Source: Kosmotogaceae bacterium
GTDB lineage: Bacteria > Thermotogota > Thermotogae > Petrotogales > Kosmotogaceae
Length of the DNA: 64,000 nucleotides
Direction: 5' to 3'
NCBI GenBank assembly: GCA_036728705.1
Contig: DAIMTK010000010.1
Coordinates: 3,541 to 67,540 of the forward strand
Numbering within the stretch: position 1 is the first letter of the stretch; each line of letters opens with the position of its first letter. Of this stretch, positions 27,323-41,144 are shown in pieces. A program made the position numbers and the translations under genes. The notes beneath the pieces are model-generated. The model was not told the DNA's origin, made no database searches, and saw only the letters and a program-made list of their open reading frames with translations.

Positions 27323-27952
27323 TCAGAAGATTATAAGCAGCGCCGTTACTGCCACTATAACGCCAAGTCCTGCCAATCCATATTTTTCCCATCTTGCAAG
27401 TCCGGACATGTAGTGAAAGGATCTGATTTGCCTTATCCAGTTAGGTATCATCAGAATCTGACCAAATGTGAAACTCTCTCTGCGACCGAAGGTTATCCAG
27501 GCTCTGCCAGACTCTTTTGAGCTTATCAGTAGTCTGTATGTCCCGTCGTTTTCCATTAAGCTGTCATACCTTAAGTAAAGGTAAGAGTTCGTGTCACCGA
27601 AGAATTCGTACATTACCTCGGGTTCGGTCTGAGAAAAGTCAAATTTATCTCTTACTGATCCGTCTGGATTATATAGAGTCAACGATGGCCTGTAGTCATA
27701 TGTGGTCTCCATTTCCGGAACCCCGACGGGTACTCCAAATAGCATGTGGAGATCTTTACCGGGGATGCCACTAAAAGTGAACACGATAGTCTCATTCTCT
27801 CCAAATTCGTAGTAGAAGATCTGCGAAAGATCTATGTCTTCAACGAAGTAAGAGCCACTGGCGAAGTCCGCTTTCTCCAGAAACCCGGGAATGTGAGCTG
27901 ACAGGGTCACACCCAGAAAAAACACCATAGTAATAAGGAATAATCTTCTCAT
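27323..27952 (-). CDS. hypothetical exported protein with C-terminal membrane anchor
   Basis: Signal peptide MRRLFLITMVFFLGVTLSA|HIPGF. Beta-rich body. C-terminal TM helix YGLAGLGVIVAVTALLIIF. Confidence 0.6.
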   Translation of the reverse strand: MRRLFLITMVFFLGVTLSAHIPGFLEKADFASGSYFVEDIDLSQIFYYEFGENETIVFTFSGIPGKDLHMLFGVPVGVPEMETTYDYRPSLTLYNPDGSVRDKFDFSQTEPEVMYEFFGDTNSYLYLRYDSLMENDGTYRLLISSKESGRAWITFGRRESFTFGQILMIPNWIRQIRSFHYMSGLARWEKYGLAGLGVIVAVTALLIIF

Positions 27953-28078
27953 AGTACACCTCCTTATTTAGATTGTCTTCAAATAATTTTATCAACAACC
28001 CTGAAGGAGGCGTTCGACTTTTAAGAGTCGATTTGACTGAATTTGACTCTCACAGATAATACAGACCTGACATACAGG

Positions 28079-35558: not shown

Positions 35559-36167
35559 TTGAGGATCGGAGTACTCGGAATTCAGGGAGATATTCAGGAA
35601 CACCTTCGGGCCATAAACAGAATAGGTCACGAACCGGTATGGGTTAAAGACGTCCCTACCCTTGAATCGGTCGATGCTCTGGCCATGCCCGGTGGAGAAT
35701 CGACGACCATGACGAAGCTTCTGAAGCGTTTCGGCATCTGGGATCCTCTTAGAGAGAGAATAGTTGATGGCCTTCCGGTCTTTGCGACTTGCGCGGGGAT
35801 GATCCTCCTGTCAGAGGGGGTTGAGAACTATCCTGCTCAGGATACTCTGCGAGTTCTCGACGTTACCATTGAGAGAAATGGTTACGGAAGACAGGCCAAT
35901 AGCTTTGAGGCAGATCTCTATATGAACTATCTTGGAGACGTACCCTTCAGGGCAATATTCATAAGAGCGCCTAAGATATCCTCTATCGGTGAAGGAGTGG
36001 AAGTACTGGCCAATTATAACGGAGTACCGGTGCTTGTAAGACATAAGAGCATCATGGCCGCTTCGTTCCATCCCGAGCTTACGAGTGATTTCAGACTTCA
36101 TATGTATTTCATAGAAGCGATTGCCCGACTAAATGAAGAAGCCAGAACGGAGAAGCAAGATGTGTAG
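35559..36167 (+). CDS. pdxT: pyridoxal 5'-phosphate synthase glutaminase subunit PdxT
   Basis: IGVLGIQGD..EH, PGGESTT, TCAGMILL and FHPELT. TTG start 3 nt after the pdxS stop. Confidence 0.95.
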   Translation: MRIGVLGIQGDIQEHLRAINRIGHEPVWVKDVPTLESVDALAMPGGESTTMTKLLKRFGIWDPLRERIVDGLPVFATCAGMILLSEGVENYPAQDTLRVLDVTIERNGYGRQANSFEADLYMNYLGDVPFRAIFIRAPKISSIGEGVEVLANYNGVPVLVRHKSIMAASFHPELTSDFRLHMYFIEAIARLNEEARTEKQDV

Positions 36168-36816
36168 AATGCTTGCTTTCAAAAGCAATAAGAACATAGA
36201 TGCAAGCTGGATTTTCGAGATACTCCGGAGAATGTCAAGAGATGGTATAAACAGCCCTCACGGTGACGGCTTCGGATTCGCCATTTCTGGAGAAGATCGC
36301 CTTTCATTTAGCTCCACTAGCGCTATCTGGGAATCGAAATACCCTATTGTTGAAAGTAGTTTGGGGATTGTTCACGCCAGAAAGGCCTCTCCCGGATACG
36401 TAGTGAACCCGAACCATGTACATCCGTTCTACGGACTTGTAAGAGGCGTAGACTATGCCTTCTGTCATAACGGAACGGTCTATGATTTCGCCAGCGTTCA
36501 GGGCACTATAGATACCCAGAGATATTGCGAACTCGTATTCAGTAATCTGCAGAGATACAGTCCCGGAGAGGCACTCGAGACAACCGCGAGGTTTGTGGCT
36601 TCAAGCTTCAATTACACTTCTATAAACGCTCTTTTGACAGACTACGAAAACATATGGGCTATCAGGATGAACTCTGAGGAAGCTGACACAGCCCACGGGC
36701 TCTTCCTCTACGAAACCGATGGACTGAGAATCGTTGCAAGCGAACCGGTTGAGGAGTTTTCGAATCTGCCAGGAAGCTCTGTAAATATGGGTAATGGAGA
36801 ATTGATCAAACTCTGA
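36160..36816 (+). CDS. class II (Ntn) glutamine amidotransferase family protein
   Basis: Met-Cys start (MCRMLAF) gives the N-terminal nucleophile Cys. Also VHARKAS and CHNGTV. 8-nt overlap with pdxT. Confidence 0.75.
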   Translation: MCRMLAFKSNKNIDASWIFEILRRMSRDGINSPHGDGFGFAISGEDRLSFSSTSAIWESKYPIVESSLGIVHARKASPGYVVNPNHVHPFYGLVRGVDYAFCHNGTVYDFASVQGTIDTQRYCELVFSNLQRYSPGEALETTARFVASSFNYTSINALLTDYENIWAIRMNSEEADTAHGLFLYETDGLRIVASEPVEEFSNLPGSSVNMGNGELIKL

Positions 36817-36843
36817 CAGCGATATCTGGACTGTAAATATAAA

Positions 36844-36890
36844 AGACGGCGCGATCACGCACAGTGTCTGTGTGGACGGCGCCGTTTATG
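36844..36890. terminator. candidate bidirectional terminator between convergent operons
   Basis: ACGGCGC / GCGCCGT 7-bp stem with a long loop, flanked by A4 and T3-4 runs. Confidence 0.35.
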
Positions 36891-36901
36891 ATTATCCGTT
36901 T

Positions 36902-37732
36902 CTAACCGCTTCTCTTGAGCACCCCTCTGCGTTTTGCCCATTTCTCCATCTTCCCGAAGAACATCAGTCCTGAGGGAAGCAACAGCGCTCCAAGGAGTAT
37001 TAGCGGCCAGATACTGCTCCACATTTCGGTCATCTTTCTGCCTTCGAGAACTGAAGCTCTCATACCTCTCAAAGCATAGGTCGCAGGCGAAAGCTTGCCC
37101 ACTTGTTGCATCCAGCCCGGTAGCACATCGACCTCATAGTATACCCCGGAGAACATCAGCAGAAGCGCCTGGAAGATATGAACGACCTGCACGCCCTTTT
37201 CAGGCGATATCAGAGGCAGTACGGCGGCAACTATTCCCAGTCCAACGAATGAGAAACTTGAGACGGCCAGAATACCGGCAGCAGACAGCAGATTGGCCTT
37301 CTGAAGATTCAGATCGAAGAATATCGAAACAACAAGAAGAATCATGCCGCTCCTGAGAATTCCGTAGAGAATGGCATATCCACATGTACTCAGCAAATGG
37401 GTTGCACGCCTAACCGGTGCCATAAAAGTGTATTCGATAGTCTCTTCCCAGCGTTCCCAGGCTACCGTTTCGGCTACTATCTCGAAGAGAATCGAGAGAT
37501 AGCCCCAGAGAATAGACCCGAGCAACATATACAGTATCAGATAACTCGTATCCAGCTTGGTACCGGAAAAGGCCTCAACACCCTTTCCTATGAATCCCAT
37601 AGTCACAGAGTTGGCCATCGTGTAAACAAAGAAGACCAACTCCCACTTCCAGTATCTCTTGGAAAAATTGAAGTTCCTTTCTATAAAGGCCCAAGAAGCC
37701 CTAAGCTCCTTTACCAATTGCTGTGAACTCAT
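36902..37732 (-). CDS. ABC-2 type transporter permease
   Basis: Six TM helices. ABC-2 family layout directly after the ATPase (4-nt overlap). Confidence 0.85.
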   Translation of the reverse strand: MSSQQLVKELRASWAFIERNFNFSKRYWKWELVFFVYTMANSVTMGFIGKGVEAFSGTKLDTSYLILYMLLGSILWGYLSILFEIVAETVAWERWEETIEYTFMAPVRRATHLLSTCGYAILYGILRSGMILLVVSIFFDLNLQKANLLSAAGILAVSSFSFVGLGIVAAVLPLISPEKGVQVVHIFQALLLMFSGVYYEVDVLPGWMQQVGKLSPATYALRGMRASVLEGRKMTEMWSSIWPLILLGALLLPSGLMFFGKMEKWAKRRGVLKRSG

Positions 37733-38523
37733 GCAGTTTCTACCTCCTGGTACTGTGCGTCTTCCATTGTCATTCCAGTGTATTCGAGGAAAACATCTTC
37801 AAAAGTCGGGTTTTCGACCTTTCCAGTAATCTGATTCTTAAGTTCGGCAGGTTTTCCGACTGCGACAATCATACCCAGATGGATTATGGCAACGTAATCG
37901 CACAGCTTTTCGGCCTCGTCCATATCGTGCGTGGTCAGCAACATGGTAGTGCTCATGTTTTTCTTCACATCTCGAATCAGAGACTGTACATCTCTCTTTG
38001 CTCTTGGATCGAGGCCAGTCGTGGGTTCGTCCAGAAGAAGCATCTTCGGTTCAGTCATGAAGGCCCTCACGATGGCGACTTTCTGTTGCATACCCCTTGA
38101 GAAATCCTCGAGCGGATCTTTCAGTCTCTTTCTTTCAAGCCCGAAACGGTCTGAGAGATAGTAGATCTTCTCAATTGCTTCCTTCTTGGATATCCCGTAA
38201 AGACCGGCCGAGAAAGAGAGGTTCTCGATTGCCGAAAGCTTCCTGAAGAAACTCGCCTCTACCGAGACTCTGTTGATAAGTTTCTGGACTGTCGAGGCCT
38301 CTCTATCGACATCGTGTCCGAATACCGAGACACTTCCTCGATCTGGAATTAGAAGCGTCGAAGCGATTCTTATGAAAGTCGACTTTCCAGAACCGTTAGG
38401 TCCGAGAAGACCGTAGATCTCTCCTTCTTTTATCCTGAGGCTGACACCCTTCAGGGCAGTGATTTCCTTCTTGCTTTTCTTGAAATACTTGACTACATTA
38501 TTGGCAAAGAGTGCGTCTGCCAT
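37729..38523 (-). CDS. ABC transporter ATP-binding protein (DrrA/ABC-2 exporter type)
   Basis: Walker A GPNGSGKST, signature FSRGMQQK, Walker B LLLDEPTTGLD. Confidence 0.95.
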   Translation of the reverse strand: MADALFANNVVKYFKKSKKEITALKGVSLRIKEGEIYGLLGPNGSGKSTFIRIASTLLIPDRGSVSVFGHDVDREASTVQKLINRVSVEASFFRKLSAIENLSFSAGLYGISKKEAIEKIYYLSDRFGLERKRLKDPLEDFSRGMQQKVAIVRAFMTEPKMLLLDEPTTGLDPRAKRDVQSLIRDVKKNMSTTMLLTTHDMDEAEKLCDYVAIIHLGMIVAVGKPAELKNQITGKVENPTFEDVFLEYTGMTMEDAQYQEVETA

Positions 38524-38535
38524 TTCACACCTCCG

Positions 38536-38640
38536 TCAAAGATAGTGAGGCCGGCTGAATCTTCTCTCGATCTCAATTCTCTGTTTTTCCAAACTTTCAT
38601 CTATAGAAATCTCTCTTGAACCCTTATAGATTTTTCTCAT
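38536..38640 (-). CDS. mini-ORF C (34 aa), translationally coupled to the ABC ATPase
   Basis: Hand translation: MRKIYKGSREISIDESLEKQRIEIERRFSRPHYL. SD AAGGAGGTAAGAG upstream. The stop lies 12 nt before the ATPase ATG. Confidence 0.35.
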   Translation of the reverse strand: MRKIYKGSREISIDESLEKQRIEIERRFSRPHYL

Positions 38641-38643
38641 CTC

Positions 38644-38808
38644 TTACCTCCTTGTACTGCTCCTTATTTCGGGAAGGTCCATGGCACTTTCCGGTTCATC
38701 AATAAAGGGTGGAAATACTACGCTACATCCACTTCGGCTGTTTCTTAGTTCACCAGTTACCGCAATCATCATTGTTTCACCCCCATCTTTCCAGATCCGG
38801 GAGGTCAT
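38644..38808 (-). CDS. mini-ORF B (54 aa; alternative 42-aa form from the ATG at 38772)
   Basis: MTSRIWKDGGETMMIAVTGELRNSRSGCSVVFPPFIDEPESAMDLPEIRSSTRR. The internal ATG has SD GGGGGTGA. The stop lies 3 nt before mini-ORF C. Confidence 0.3.
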   Translation of the reverse strand: MTSRIWKDGGETMMIAVTGELRNSRSGCSVVFPPFIDEPESAMDLPEIRSSTRR

Positions 38809-38821
38809 GGTCCCACTTCTT

Positions 38822-38923
38822 TCAAAGCCAGACGCAATAGGGTCCAAAGACCTCGTTTTCTTTTGGCTTTCTGAATTCTTTGCTTTTCTGCAATCTCTCG
38901 TTCTGCTGAATCTTTGCTGACAT
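38822..38923 (-). CDS. mini-ORF A (33 aa) with strong SD
   Basis: Hand translation: MSAKIQQNERLQKSKEFRKPKENEVFGPYCVWL. AGGAGGTG lies 5 nt upstream of the ATG. It is too short for the ORF track. Confidence 0.4.
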   Translation of the reverse strand: MSAKIQQNERLQKSKEFRKPKENEVFGPYCVWL

Positions 38924-38950
38924 AGCTGCACCTCCTGCAAAAGTACCGAC

Positions 38951-38984
38951 AAAAAAAAGACCGTGGCTCTCAGTAGCCACGGTC
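38951..38984 (-). terminator. Rho-independent terminator / attenuator inside the exporter leader
   Basis: On the minus strand: GACCGTGGCT-actgag-AGCCACGGTC (10 bp) followed by T8. Confidence 0.85.
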
Positions 38985-39003
38985 CCTCAAACATCGTCTA
39001 TAG

Positions 39004-39111
39004 TTATACTAACTTATACCTCACACGACGGATGAAGGCGTGGCGCAATACGGCATCACCGGATACCCTGTTAAGGGTCTCGATTGCCATGATCCGGAAT
39101 CTTCTTACCAT
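39004..39111 (-). CDS. leader ORF (35 aa) upstream of the attenuator
   Basis: MVRRFRIMAIETLNRVSGDAVLRHAFIRRVRYKLV. GGAGG lies 9 nt upstream. The stop lies 19 nt before the terminator stem. Confidence 0.3.
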   Translation of the reverse strand: MVRRFRIMAIETLNRVSGDAVLRHAFIRRVRYKLV

Positions 39112-39154
39112 CAAACTACGCCTCCTTCCATAGAGTTTTCTATTTCGCACGAAG

Positions 39155-39183
39155 ATTATAGCACACAATTCCCAGAAATCCAA
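39155..39183 (-). promoter_or_regulatory. sigma70-type promoter with extended -10
   Basis: On the minus strand: TTGGAT-N17-TATAAT, with an extended -10 (TGc) directly upstream of the -10 box. Confidence 0.6.
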
Positions 39184-39426
39184 AGCCAAATCCTAAAAGA
39201 TATTGAATTCGACTTTACTGTTTATGGCGTTATTTTGTCAGCAACTAAATAAACTCAATCGCAACCGGTGTTTTTCGCCAACTCATTTTTCTGGAGAGAC
39301 CCGAGAAAATTCAGGCTTGTCTTACTAAGACGCCACCTCAGGAAGATTTTTCATCATATTTGGGAATCATCGAGACTCATCACCCTTCAACAGGCGTAAT
39401 CGTAATTGATAACGCAAAACAATATA

Positions 39427-39503: not shown

Positions 39504-41144
39504 ATGGGAGAAAAGCTGGAAAGCCTACCTAGATTTACTCGAGCGCTGATAAAGAGCCATTTAATTGCATGCGGCTTCTCATACGAGGATAGTGAGAAAC
39601 CTATCATTGGTATCGTTAACTCTTGGAATGAATTCAATCACGGCCACATACCACAAAGGGAGCTTGCAGAGAAGGTAAAGGATGGCGTCAGGGCCAGGGG
39701 CGGACTTCCACTCGAATTCAACACAATTGGTCCATGTGATGCACTGGCTCAGGGATATGAGGCAATGGATTTCATTCTTCCCAGTAGAGAAGTAATAGCA
39801 GATTCTATAGAGGCTATGGTCCTGTCACAGAACGTTGTTGACGGTCTGGTATTCATCTCTTCGTGTGACAAGATTACGCCCGGAATGCTTATGGCAGCTC
39901 TAAGACTGGATATTCCTGCTATCCATATCTGTAGTGGAACATGTACTCCGGCGATAACTTTTGCAGAATCCAAAAAGATAAGAAATGATTTCCTAACCGG
40001 AAGGATATCCGAAAGAGAGCTCGCTGAAGGCAATGCAAGGCTCTATCCACAACCTGGGATCTGTCCTTATATAGGAACTGCACAATCTATGAATTGTGTT
40101 GCTGAGGCTCTTGGTCTCGCACTACCAGGTTCTGCCGCCTGCCCTTCCTGCACGAATGAAAGGGCCGCTTATGCAATCAGGACGGGGGAAACAATCGTAA
40201 CCGTTGCAGAGAAAAAGCTTAAGCCGTCCTCCTTCATAACCAAAGAATCCTTTGACAACGCTCTAAGAGTCATGGCTGCACTTGCGGCTTCAATGAATCA
40301 TCTTCTTCACGTACCGGCTATAGCAAACGAAATAGGTATAAAGATAGACTTTGACTACATAGGTCAGATCAACTCGAACACTCCACAGCTGTGTACAGTA
40401 AATCCAAACGGAGAGTACTCGATGGCGGATTTTGCCCGCGCAGGAGGAGTTCCGGCAGTGATAAAGCAGCTCGGTCATTTGATCAATGTCGACAGCAGGA
40501 ATGTCGAGGAAAAGACAATGGCAGAAATCGCCGATAAAGCAATCGTAGCAGACGAAAGAATTATAAAGCCATCTTCCGATCCCGTCAGCCCAATGGGTGG
40601 GATTGTCATTCTCAAAGGGAACATCGCGAAGAACGGGGCAGTTGTGAAGAGATCAACTGTGCCATCCGGAATGATGAAGTTCTCCGGACCAGTCAGGGTC
40701 TTCGACGGCGAAGAAGAAGCCACTGACGCTATTGAAAGAGGCTCGATCAGAGAGGGAGACATAGTGGTGATAAGGTATGTCGGACCGAAAGGAGGTCCGG
40801 GGATGAGAGAGCTTCACAGAGTGGCCGGAGCTCTGAAAAGTGTTGGAGAAAAAGTGGCCGTGGTTACTGAAGGAAGATTCTCCGGAGCCACGGGAGGACT
40901 CGCCGTAGGTTATCTTGGGCCGGAGTCAGCTGAGGGTGGAGAGATAGGAGTTCTAAGAGATGGAGATATTCTGGAGATAAACATCACGGAAAAGACCATA
41001 AACGCGAGATTATCGGATTCCGAAATAGCCGACAGACTTTCTTGTTTCGTGCCGAAGAGCAACACCGGAAGAGCGAAGTTGCTAGACGAATACGCTAGAA
41101 GAGTCGGTCCCGTTAATACAGGCGCGGTAAGGTTGTCTGACTGA
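39504..41144 (+). CDS. IlvD/Edd family dehydratase (dihydroxy-acid or sugar-acid dehydratase)
   Basis: PIIGIVNSWNEFNHGH, SCDKITPGMLMA, Fe-S Cys context (ICPYIGTAQSMN), and VTEGRFSGATGG. Confidence 0.9.
   Translation: MGEKLESLPRFTRALIKSHLIACGFSYEDSEKPIIGIVNSWNEFNHGHIPQRELAEKVKDGVRARGGLPLEFNTIGPCDALAQGYEAMDFILPSREVIADSIEAMVLSQNVVDGLVFISSCDKITPGMLMAALRLDIPAIHICSGTCTPAITFAESKKIRNDFLTGRISERELAEGNARLYPQPGICPYIGTAQSMNCVAEALGLALPGSAACPSCTNERAAYAIRTGETIVTVAEKKLKPSSFITKESFDNALRVMAALAASMNHLLHVPAIANEIGIKIDFDYIGQINSNTPQLCTVNPNGEYSMADFARAGGVPAVIKQLGHLINVDSRNVEEKTMAEIADKAIVADERIIKPSSDPVSPMGGIVILKGNIAKNGAVVKRSTVPSGMMKFSGPVRVFDGEEEATDAIERGSIREGDIVVIRYVGPKGGPGMRELHRVAGALKSVGEKVAVVTEGRFSGATGGLAVGYLGPESAEGGEIGVLRDGDILEINITEKTINARLSDSEIADRLSCFVPKSNTGRAKLLDEYARRVGPVNTGAVRLSD

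Follow-up and report, generated by a model that had tools for sequence, protein, structure and literature searches.

What is encoded in the ~980 nucleotides (nt) without a called gene ahead of an ATP-binding cassette (ABC) exporter of the ABC-2 type in a Kosmotogaceae bacterium (Thermotogota), and how might this region govern the pump? The locus lies on contig DAIMTK010000010.1 (assembly GCA_036728705.1) in a stretch of 64,000 nt, the whole of which is called the window here. As read from the sequence, it consists of a promoter, a leader, three mini-open reading frames (mini-ORFs A, B, and C), an ATPase gene, and a permease gene, arranged in this order on the minus strand (Table 1). A first-pass annotation, prepared from the letters alone, had described the promoter, a 35-codon leader ORF with its Shine-Dalgarno (SD) sequence, a hairpin followed by U8, and mini-ORFs A and C, each of which is present where it had been placed, and had put forward two readings, namely ribosome-mediated attenuation and a small exported or immunity-type peptide. 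The comparative and folding analyses presented here lend good support to the first reading, indicating that the leader is a transcription attenuator that depends on ribosomes and has three helices in competition, and an attenuator followed by a relay of translated mini-ORFs is, in our judgment, probably the best explanation of the locus as a whole.

The analysis was based on a one-genome-per-species scan that yielded 42 loci, about 30 of which came from Kosmotogaceae, other Thermotogota, and Caldisericia (permease identity of 64 to 91%) and about 10 from Actinomycetota or Chloroflexota (permease identity of ~50%). Look-ups added one lineage of the window's clade (L059) and the loci of Pseudothermotoga lettingae TMO (L063; CP000812, at ~1.073 Mb) and Thermosipho ferrireducens (L064), both of which are in culture. 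An identical permease was found on many metagenome contigs, and there the upstream region was identical too (L001 to L006). The window's clade comprised four lineages (the window, L007, L008, and L059), with upstream regions 57 to 70% identical and ABC proteins 80 to 91% identical, and leader counts rest on 29 to 32 Thermotogota/Caldisericia leaders (32 unique). Results revealed that every Thermotogota/Caldisericia locus with enough upstream sequence shares one layout, in which a strong SD, an ORF of 23 to 35 codons, a gap of 15 to 30 nt, a GC hairpin, a T-run, and a new SD follow one another, and that both cultured species have this layout as well. Moreover, the terminator stems change sequence in a compensatory fashion across ~30 loci, as judged by RNAalifold and by comparison of the loci.

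In the window, the terminator hairpin begins 19 nt past the leader ORF's stop codon, and the terminator scan gave a stem of 10 base pairs (bp) from position 38984 that is extendable to 14 pairs from 38988. A promoter scan found no promoter-like site on the minus strand from 38951 to 38523, consistent with the earlier claim that no second promoter lies downstream of the terminator. The 204-nt leader folded with a minimum free energy of −70.6 kcal/mol in RNAfold (z = −3.6 against dinucleotide shuffles); in this fold, the SD region was paired with GCGCCACGCCUUC, a hairpin enclosed the leader stop codon, and the terminator formed with 14 bp. When the 3' arm of the terminator was omitted, GCCACGCCUUCA paired instead with UGAGGGACCGUGGC, giving an antiterminator, so that RNAfold with and without this arm returned the mutually exclusive folds that the first-pass annotation had proposed to look for. 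The pairing of GCCACG with CGTGGC, which it had offered as a possible antiterminator, proved to be real as a predicted helix: it extends to 11 bp (GCCACGCCUUC with GAGGGACCGUGGC), recurs at the same place in most orthologues, and covaries with the terminator arm. Its upstream strand, element 2 (GCCACGCCTTC; GCCACGCCUUC in the 11-bp pairing), corresponds to codons 23 to 26 of the leader ORF, and its downstream strand belongs to element 3, the 5' arm of the terminator with its UGAGG lead-in. From element 2 to the end of the terminator segment, the terminator state was calculated at −37.3 kcal/mol and the forced antiterminator at −33.9 kcal/mol, values that are, in the model, close enough for kinetic competition. 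A hairpin at the apex of the antiterminator was predicted in both alternative folds and might cause RNA polymerase to pause. In 24 of the 32 unique leaders, the segment most complementary to the terminator 5' arm occurred 51 to 66 nt past the leader ATG, and in the window's clade and its nearer relatives the antiterminator complementarity reached z values of −2 to −4.4 against dinucleotide shuffles.

A third helix, which the first-pass annotation had missed, covaries even more clearly than the antiterminator. Upstream of element 2 (GCCACGCC), the segment that pairs best with it is, in nearly all leaders, the leader SD with its spacer (element 1), and the spacer covaries with element 2; this 1:2 helix, an anti-antiterminator, was recovered in the RNAalifold consensus. 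Compensatory changes include GTGGC/GCCAC, GTGACGA/TCGTCAT, GTATGC/GCATAT, CATGCAA/TTGCAAA, and GTGGACAG/CTGTCCAC. The pairings were further evaluated by swapping elements among 19 clade representatives; for this purpose, element 2 was set by position, from 48 to 18 nt before the ORF end, and not chosen by complementarity. In these tests, which are energy based and carry no phylogeny correction, a leader's own partners paired better than swapped ones for both the anti-antiterminator (−19.5 versus −14.5 kcal/mol; permutation P ≤ 5e-5) and the antiterminator (−13.1 versus −10.1 kcal/mol; permutation P ≤ 5e-5), and the control pair of elements 1 and 3 gave −5.3 versus −5.6 kcal/mol (P = 0.82). The leader is therefore predicted to contain a terminator, an antiterminator that shares the terminator 5' arm, a competing anti-antiterminator, and a suitably placed SD-led ORF, and the attenuation reading of the first-pass annotation is upheld by three covarying helices together with a conserved leader ORF.

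That the leader ORF is translated is suggested by its conservation. An SD-led ORF of 23 to 35 codons ending 15 to 30 nt before the hairpin was present in 32 of 32 unique leaders; the leader frame held 0 stops across this set, compared with 93 and 74 in the other two frames, and AGGAGG and the ATG were invariant in the leader alignment. What is conserved appears to be RNA and translation and not the peptide, since synonymous sites are kept and the leader frame into which element 2 falls (0, 1, or 2) depends on the clade. Within the window's clade, the proportion of synonymous differences (pS) in the leader ORF was 0.06 to 0.36, versus 0.72 to 0.88 (saturated) in the ABC genes, and differences in the leader ORF were spread evenly over the three codon positions. 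Scans of the leader peptide against Pfam and NCBIfam assigned it to no family. The motif [RK]x[RK], a context in which macrolide-bound ribosomes arrest, occurred within the first 14 leader residues in 17 of the 32 leaders, compared with 4.9 ± 1.9 in shuffles; we treat this enrichment as just a lead, because the lineages are not independent.

Two short motifs in this region stand apart. GGTAT and GTATA flank the last leader codons and the stop (39004..39021 on the minus strand; columns 133 to 150 of alignment A2), and both are nucleotide invariant over three clades, third codon positions included, the intervening 6 nt being free to vary. This invariance is accounted for by neither the helices nor the coding frame. 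It could be taken, along with a leader core better conserved as nucleotides than as peptide and a terminated transcript that would be short (~200 nt), to mean that the leader functions as a riboswitch binding a ligand or protein, or as a small RNA in its own right, and that the leader ORF is incidental. A search of Rfam 15 with the window and six related loci returned no gathering-threshold match, the hits at E ≤ 10 being chance matches far below gathering, so the check for a known riboswitch set by the first-pass annotation came out negative. The interior between elements 1 and 2 is, moreover, poorly conserved between clades, and this together with the Rfam result makes a riboswitch unlikely. 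The SD, the ATG, and an open frame ending just before the hairpin in all unique leaders speak against an incidental ORF, and since element 1 is the SD itself, the switch is tied to ribosome binding. We therefore regard a riboswitch or small RNA as very improbable. A second leader-like site in the window (27990..27859), raised by a weak nhmmer match, turned out to be the SD and ATG of an ordinary 209-amino-acid (aa) gene.

The attenuator would work through the position of the ribosome on the leader. In the default state with no ribosome on the leader, helix 1:2 would form first, the terminator helix 3:4 would follow, and the transcript would end at U8 (38951); with smooth translation, the ribosome would cover element 2 and then sit at the stop codon ahead of element 3, and 3:4 would again form. 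Under induction, a ribosome detained on the start codon or on early codons would mask element 1, so that element 2 would be available to pair with element 3 once the latter emerged, and when the antiterminator 2:3 had formed, RNA polymerase would read into A, B, C, the ATPase gene, and the permease gene. The inducing signal would be slowed or arrested translation, caused most plausibly by ribosome-targeting compounds that a DrrAB-like pump would then expel. This signal is suggested by analogy with the bmrB and vmlR leaders discussed below, and a uORF (upstream ORF) leader found in actinobacterial orthologues is suggestive as well; translation of the leader and of A to C, the pump's substrate, and the function suggested for A to C are likewise proposed on indirect grounds.

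The pump itself is, on sequence evidence, an ABC-2 exporter of a drug-efflux-like branch. Coordinates and Pfam matches bear out the order of ATPase and ABC-2 permease given by the first-pass annotation, and general ABC-2 membership is indicated by PF00005 (E = 2.8e-30 for the ATPase) together with PF01061. The top NCBIfam model for the ATPase was the drrA subfamily (246 bits, under the cutoff of 312), and the permease matched drrB-type NCBIfam models weakly (38 bits against a cutoff of 223), these models ranking first or close to first for the two proteins. A search of the Protein Data Bank with the ATPase found generic ABCA-type nucleotide-binding domains nearest, and a sequence search of the same resource with the permease returned no solved relative. 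In the Actinomycetota orthologues L037 to L045, a different conserved leader lies ~200 nt upstream of the ATPase start: a TATCCT −10 box is followed by a 5-codon uORF, ATGTTGCTCTTCGGCTGA (MLLFG*; variants MLLRG* and MLLPG*), and then by a long hairpin (GAGAAC...GTTCTC), the SD GGAGGAGCA, and a GTG start, with no Rfam match. In an Anaerolineaceae locus (L046:2440-2640), two tandem, near-identical terminator hairpins (GACCACGG...CCGTGGTC) with T-runs stand directly upstream of the ATPase gene. Given the different, nonhomologous uORF and hairpin leader of the actinobacterial orthologues, control by upstream translation appears to be a property of the transporter family, which points to the whole family as a response to translation stress.

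Attenuators of this general type are already known, and the present one is absent from Rfam. Ribosome-mediated attenuation of transcription has been proven experimentally for the multidrug ABC exporter system bmrB-bmrCD of Bacillus subtilis, where induction needs leader translation and ribosome-targeting drugs are the inducers (PMC4191407); for the window locus both points are proposed by extension. The two systems share a promoter, a translated leader ORF, a terminator with antiterminator and anti-antiterminator, ABC exporter genes, and an antiterminator somewhat less stable than the terminator. They differ in that BmrB has 53 aa and the terminator lies inside its ORF, whereas here an ORF of 35 codons ends before the hairpin; in that the anti-antiterminator strand here is the leader's own SD; and in that bmrB lacks a series of further mini-ORFs. 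In addition, BmrCD is a heterodimer of half-transporters with fused transmembrane and nucleotide-binding domains, whereas the window encodes a separate PF00005 ATPase and PF01061 permease, so the pumps are nonhomologous as systems. The B. subtilis vmlR leader, a proven attenuator of an ABC-F antibiotic-resistance gene (PMC9226507), offers the same logic of anti-antiterminator, antiterminator, and terminator and also has a hairpin at the antiterminator apex; there, a ribosome arrested at the uORF start blocks the anti-antiterminator and allows the antiterminator to form, as we propose here. The vmlR uORF has, however, 3 codons located in the bulge of the anti-antiterminator and a single-stranded SD, whereas the uORFs considered here have 23 to 35 codons and run through element 2, and their SD is itself the paired strand; the vmlR product is an ABC-F ribosome-protection factor and not a membrane exporter. 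The attenuator described here is thus analogous, not homologous, to both. The enterobacterial trp, his, and phe leaders are attenuators with 1:2, 2:3, and 3:4 helices and a translated leader on which the position of the ribosome decides the outcome (summarized in PMC4191407). The window leader shares this arrangement, but it has no run of codons for a single amino acid, it precedes a pump and not a biosynthetic operon, and its element 1 is the ribosome-binding site rather than a set of control codons. A literature search found no described Thermotoga attenuator of similar kind.

Several points weigh against this interpretation. The whole case for the attenuator is comparative and thermodynamic, and antiterminator complementarity is weak (z ~0) in the distant loci L026 to L028, L047, L017-19, L018, and L034. 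The [RK]x[RK] enrichment comes from related sequences and may merely reflect basic N-termini, and as regards drug efflux, ATPase and permease both score below the DrrA/DrrB cutoffs.

The second question raised by the locus concerns the three mini-ORFs. Within the window's clade, to which A, B, and C are confined, substitution patterns indicate that they are previously unannotated, protein-coding small genes, with C and B under purifying selection and A more weakly so; the power of these selection tests is low, because the clade has four lineages only. For C, the motif ..EIExxFSxPHYL was conserved in all four lineages, the ratio of nonsynonymous to synonymous differences (pN/pS) was 0.15 to 0.35 over six pairs, the corresponding ratio of substitution rates (dN/dS) was 0.03 to 0.35 where dS could be computed, and differences were concentrated at third codon positions (e.g., 4/5/14). 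B kept its frame and the motif PPFI[DE]xPxS in L007, L008, and L059, with a pN/pS of 0.34 to 0.75, a dN/dS of 0.35 to 0.6 where dS could be computed, and differences of 10/6/25 by codon position between L008 and L059. The C-terminus of A, ENEVFGPYC[VF]WL, was kept in L007 with synonymous changes; for A, the comparison of the window with L007 alone gave a pN of 0.24, a pS of 0.85, a pN/pS of 0.28, and differences of 9/9/16, dN/dS not being computable. At the position of A, L008 and L059 carry unrelated charged ORFs of 32 to 37 codons. Frame conservation in relatives, a check set by the first-pass annotation, thus holds for the leader ORF, B, and C. Its two lengths for B, 54 or 42 aa, can be narrowed to the shorter one, as the extension in the 54-codon form is out of frame in L007 and only the 42-codon form is conserved. 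Of its spacings of 13, 3, and 12 nt, the B-C and C-ATPase gaps of 3 and 12 nt stand, and the A-B gap becomes 49 nt because the 42-codon B is the conserved form. Scans of A, B, C, and the 116-aa ORF considered next against Pfam and NCBIfam assigned none of them to a family, and a phmmer search with C against 1.84 billion representatives found a single relative.

The 116-aa ORF in which B was said to be hidden does exist in the ORF list (38644..38994) and crosses the terminator. Because it spans the terminator, A, and B in a region of ~980 nt without a called gene, the mini-ORF region could be viewed as the remnant of a decayed gene, such as a regulator. This ORF is lost in L007 and L008, neither it nor any fragment of it matches a Pfam or NCBIfam family, each mini-ORF has a strong SD of its own, and substitutions in B and C are biased by codon position, all of which render a decayed gene scarcely credible.

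Beyond the window's clade, mini-ORFs vary in number and sequence, and in all loci they sit solely between the terminator and the ATPase gene. None is present in P. lettingae (L063), T. ferrireducens (L064), L020, L033, and L034; one is found in L022 to L029, L047, and L048; two in L014, L015, and L017 to L019; three in the window's clade, in L009, L011, and L035, and in L012; and five in L010, L016, and L036. Mini-ORFs of the other clades had a pN/pS of 0.18 to 0.6, gene callers already call some of them, and a sequence cluster of 14 members joins two clades. L010, L016, and L036 each contain three to four tandem paralogous mini-ORFs of 38 to 45 codons with the C-terminal motif [IV][IV]SDFLxYNxQ+I.L, a pattern that shows, at the level of sequence, expansion by tandem duplication. 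A CxSGLC motif is common to the mini-ORFs of these three loci and the first mini-ORF of L009, L011, L012, and L035. In L035 (L035:4930-5010), the middle mini-ORF is cut to 26 codons compared with 38 in L009 and L011, implying that individual mini-ORFs can decay.

In a sister clade (L023, L024, L025, L026, L027, and L047), the sole ORF after the terminator always has exactly 33 codons, with Pro-TGA-A (CCR TGA A) at its end. This ORF drifts almost neutrally, with a pN/pS of 0.6 to 0.78 and differences spread evenly over codon positions, so that its translation and length, rather than its peptide, seem to matter; slow termination at Pro-UGA is a possible function. An ATGA start overlap at its end was also considered and was rejected as inconsistent between loci.

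We tentatively favor, at slightly less than even confidence, the view that A to C act mainly in cis as a translated relay. According to this view, they would be coupled cistrons on the transcript made by read-through, each led by a strong SD, and would carry ribosomes to the ATPase start, and their nascent chains might have effects of their own. A cis-acting role is favored because the position of mini-ORFs is strict, their number is variable, their turnover is rapid, and the ORF of the sister clade is kept in length while neutral in sequence. A published reinitiation hypothesis (PMC4833913) is loosely relevant only. Counting against a relay, the anti-SD:SD pairings that RNAalifold gave upstream of B, C, and the ATPase gene are short, with little covariation, C is conserved over its full length and fits a trans-acting small protein equally well, and part of the evidence comes from a different clade.

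Trans-acting small proteins are the next possibility: the attenuator would operate as proposed, but A, B, and C would be accessory or regulatory exporter subunits specific to their lineage, or small stress proteins co-induced with the pump. The constraint on C and B and on the mini-ORFs of other clades, the retention of VSDFLxYNxQ in the paralogues of L010, L016, and L036, the cluster that joins two clades, and the fact that gene callers recognize some of these ORFs all fit such a role. It is harder to reconcile with the absence of mini-ORFs from any site other than the terminator-ATPase interval, with a number that ranges from 0 to 5 next to a pump that is 65 to 90% identical across lineages and also occurs without them, and with the replacement of A by unrelated sequence inside one clade. 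The truncated copy in L035, the near-neutral but length-kept ORF of the sister clade, and the lack of any Pfam, NCBIfam, or wider homologue point the same way. We therefore consider a trans-acting role possible but doubtful, and less probable than the cis-acting relay.

A bolder and rather unlikely variant is that the mini-ORFs form a new, fast-evolving, tandemly duplicating family of nascent-peptide sensors and thereby provide, behind the attenuator, a second checkpoint at the level of translation. Before the ATPase is made, ribosomes would need to traverse one to five uORFs of 33 to 48 codons or would be arrested on them, and the motifs PPFID, RPHYL-stop, VSDFLxYNxQ..-stop, and Pro-UGA would be candidates for sensing; if true, this would amount to multi-input control of a drug exporter. 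TnaC and SpeFL are nascent-peptide sensors that act at or near the stop codon, and pausing at a C-terminal Pro-stop is known as well. The mini-ORFs resemble such cases in having 33 to 48 codons and, in several clades, conserved C-terminal motifs at the stop, one clade having an invariant Pro-UGA-A. They differ in that the conserved motif of B is internal, in that several ORFs follow in series, which is not known for those systems, and in that arrest is hypothetical here. We know of no bacterial precedent in which several uORFs under selection follow one another as a relay downstream of an attenuator.

The remaining proposal, the exported or immunity-type peptide of the first-pass annotation, would have the leader ORF or the mini-ORFs secreted as bacteriocin-, pheromone-, or RiPP-like products (RiPP, ribosomally synthesized and posttranslationally modified peptide), with a leaky terminator setting how much precursor is made relative to exporter and the ABC-2 pump exporting the peptides or conferring immunity. 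Small ORFs that are arrayed in tandem, evolve fast, and encode basic N-termini and aromatic or hydrophobic C-termini (A: ..VFGPYCVWL) do stand beside an ABC-2 exporter, duplicated paralogues share a common motif, and the ATPase matches a lantibiotic-protection ABC model at 1e-39, many other ABC models matching similarly or better. Lantibiotic-type operons have a structural gene followed by a leaky terminator, and the present locus resembles them in the succession of a small ORF, a hairpin, and read-through-dependent ABC-2 genes. Unlike them, it has no modification genes, it has covarying alternative hairpin partners, and the constraint on its small ORF is of the RNA type and not of the peptide type. 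Neither in nor beside the operon was there a gene for a maturation enzyme, a protease, immunity, or a receptor in a setting whose neighboring genes vary by locus, and a simple leaky terminator would have no need of covarying antiterminator and anti-antiterminator partners. Furthermore, the pumps of L063, L064, L020, L033, and L034 keep the same attenuator with zero mini-ORFs, and the peptides, as read from the sequence, are hydrophilic and have neither signal nor double-glycine leaders. These observations disfavor the proposal and leave it improbable, if marginally less so than a riboswitch.

To our knowledge, nearly every ribosome-sensing attenuator known to precede a resistance or efflux gene comes from Firmicutes or from one of a few Proteobacteria and Actinobacteria. 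The present locus adds a well-supported example that is conserved across Thermotogota and Caldisericia and would control an ABC-2 pump family, and it gives a handle on the environmental compounds sensed by the anaerobes that carry the pump. The occurrence of the simple attenuator in cultured P. lettingae and T. ferrireducens makes the idea experimentally accessible. Per genome, the mini-ORFs add at least three real small genes that annotation has missed, all placed strictly between attenuator and pump; this array is the part that could prove new, and we know of no described counterpart to a string of mini-ORFs behind an attenuator.

Table 1. Features of the attenuator and exporter locus (window positions)
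Feature	Position (strand)	Description
Promoter, sigma-70 type	39155..39183 (-)	-35 TTGGAT at 39183..39178; 17-nt spacer ending in TGc (extended -10); -10 TATAAT at 39160..39155
Leader SD, AAGGAGG	39127..39121 (-)	Read from sequence
Element 1 (5' strand, anti-antiterminator)	39117..39129 (-)	Leader SD AAGGAGG plus spacer, GGAAGGAGGCGUA
Leader ORF	39004..39111 (-)	35 codons plus stop, MVRRFRIMAIETLNRVSGDAVLRHAFIRRVRYKLV
Element 2	39032..39045 (-)	CGCCACGCCUUCAU; common to anti-antiterminator (with element 1) and antiterminator (with element 3)
Antiterminator apex hairpin	38992..39030 (-)	CGUCGU...ACGAUG; holds leader stop codon and GGTAT...GTATA motifs
Intrinsic terminator	38951..38988 (-)	Perfect stem GACCGTGGCT-actgag-AGCCACGGTC, 6-nt loop, U8
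Element 3	38989..38975 (-)	Terminator 5' arm plus UGAGG lead-in; element 4 is the 3' arm
Mini-ORF A	38822..38923 (-)	33 aa; SD AGGAGGTG at 38936..38929; ATG at 38923, 27 nt past the T-run
Mini-ORF B	38644..38772 (-)	42-aa form; ATG at 38772; SD GGGGGTG
Mini-ORF C	38536..38640 (-)	34 aa; stop 12 nt before ATPase ATG, directly ahead of ATPase SD
ABC ATPase gene	37729..38523 (-)	264 aa; PF00005
ABC-2 permease gene	36902..37732 (-)	276 aa; ATGA overlap with ATPase gene; PF01061 and PF12698
Operon-end terminator, probable	36840..36885 (-)	ACGGCGC...GCGCCGT, then CTTTTAT; weak terminator-like match at 36862..36849

With regard to the surroundings of the locus, the IlvD-like gene upstream (39504..41144) is oriented divergently and the downstream gene (36133..36816, plus strand) convergently, so that neither ends at the leader hairpin, which thus serves no other gene. 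The promoter pattern TTGRAT-N17-TGCTATAAT is kept in L007 and L008; a consensus scan missed this promoter because TTGGAT agrees with TTGACA at 3 of 6 positions only. A conserved inverted repeat, TTATTTAG-N8-CTAAATAA (39229..39252 on the minus strand), is situated ~50 nt upstream of the −35 box within the divergent intergenic region; its arms match perfectly in L007 and L008 and imperfectly in the window, and it may be a candidate transcription-factor operator. Finally, a 70-aa plus-strand ORF (39040..39252) that runs across the leader and promoter has been called as a gene in L002, L004, and L006; as it overlaps the attenuator, it is most likely a false call.

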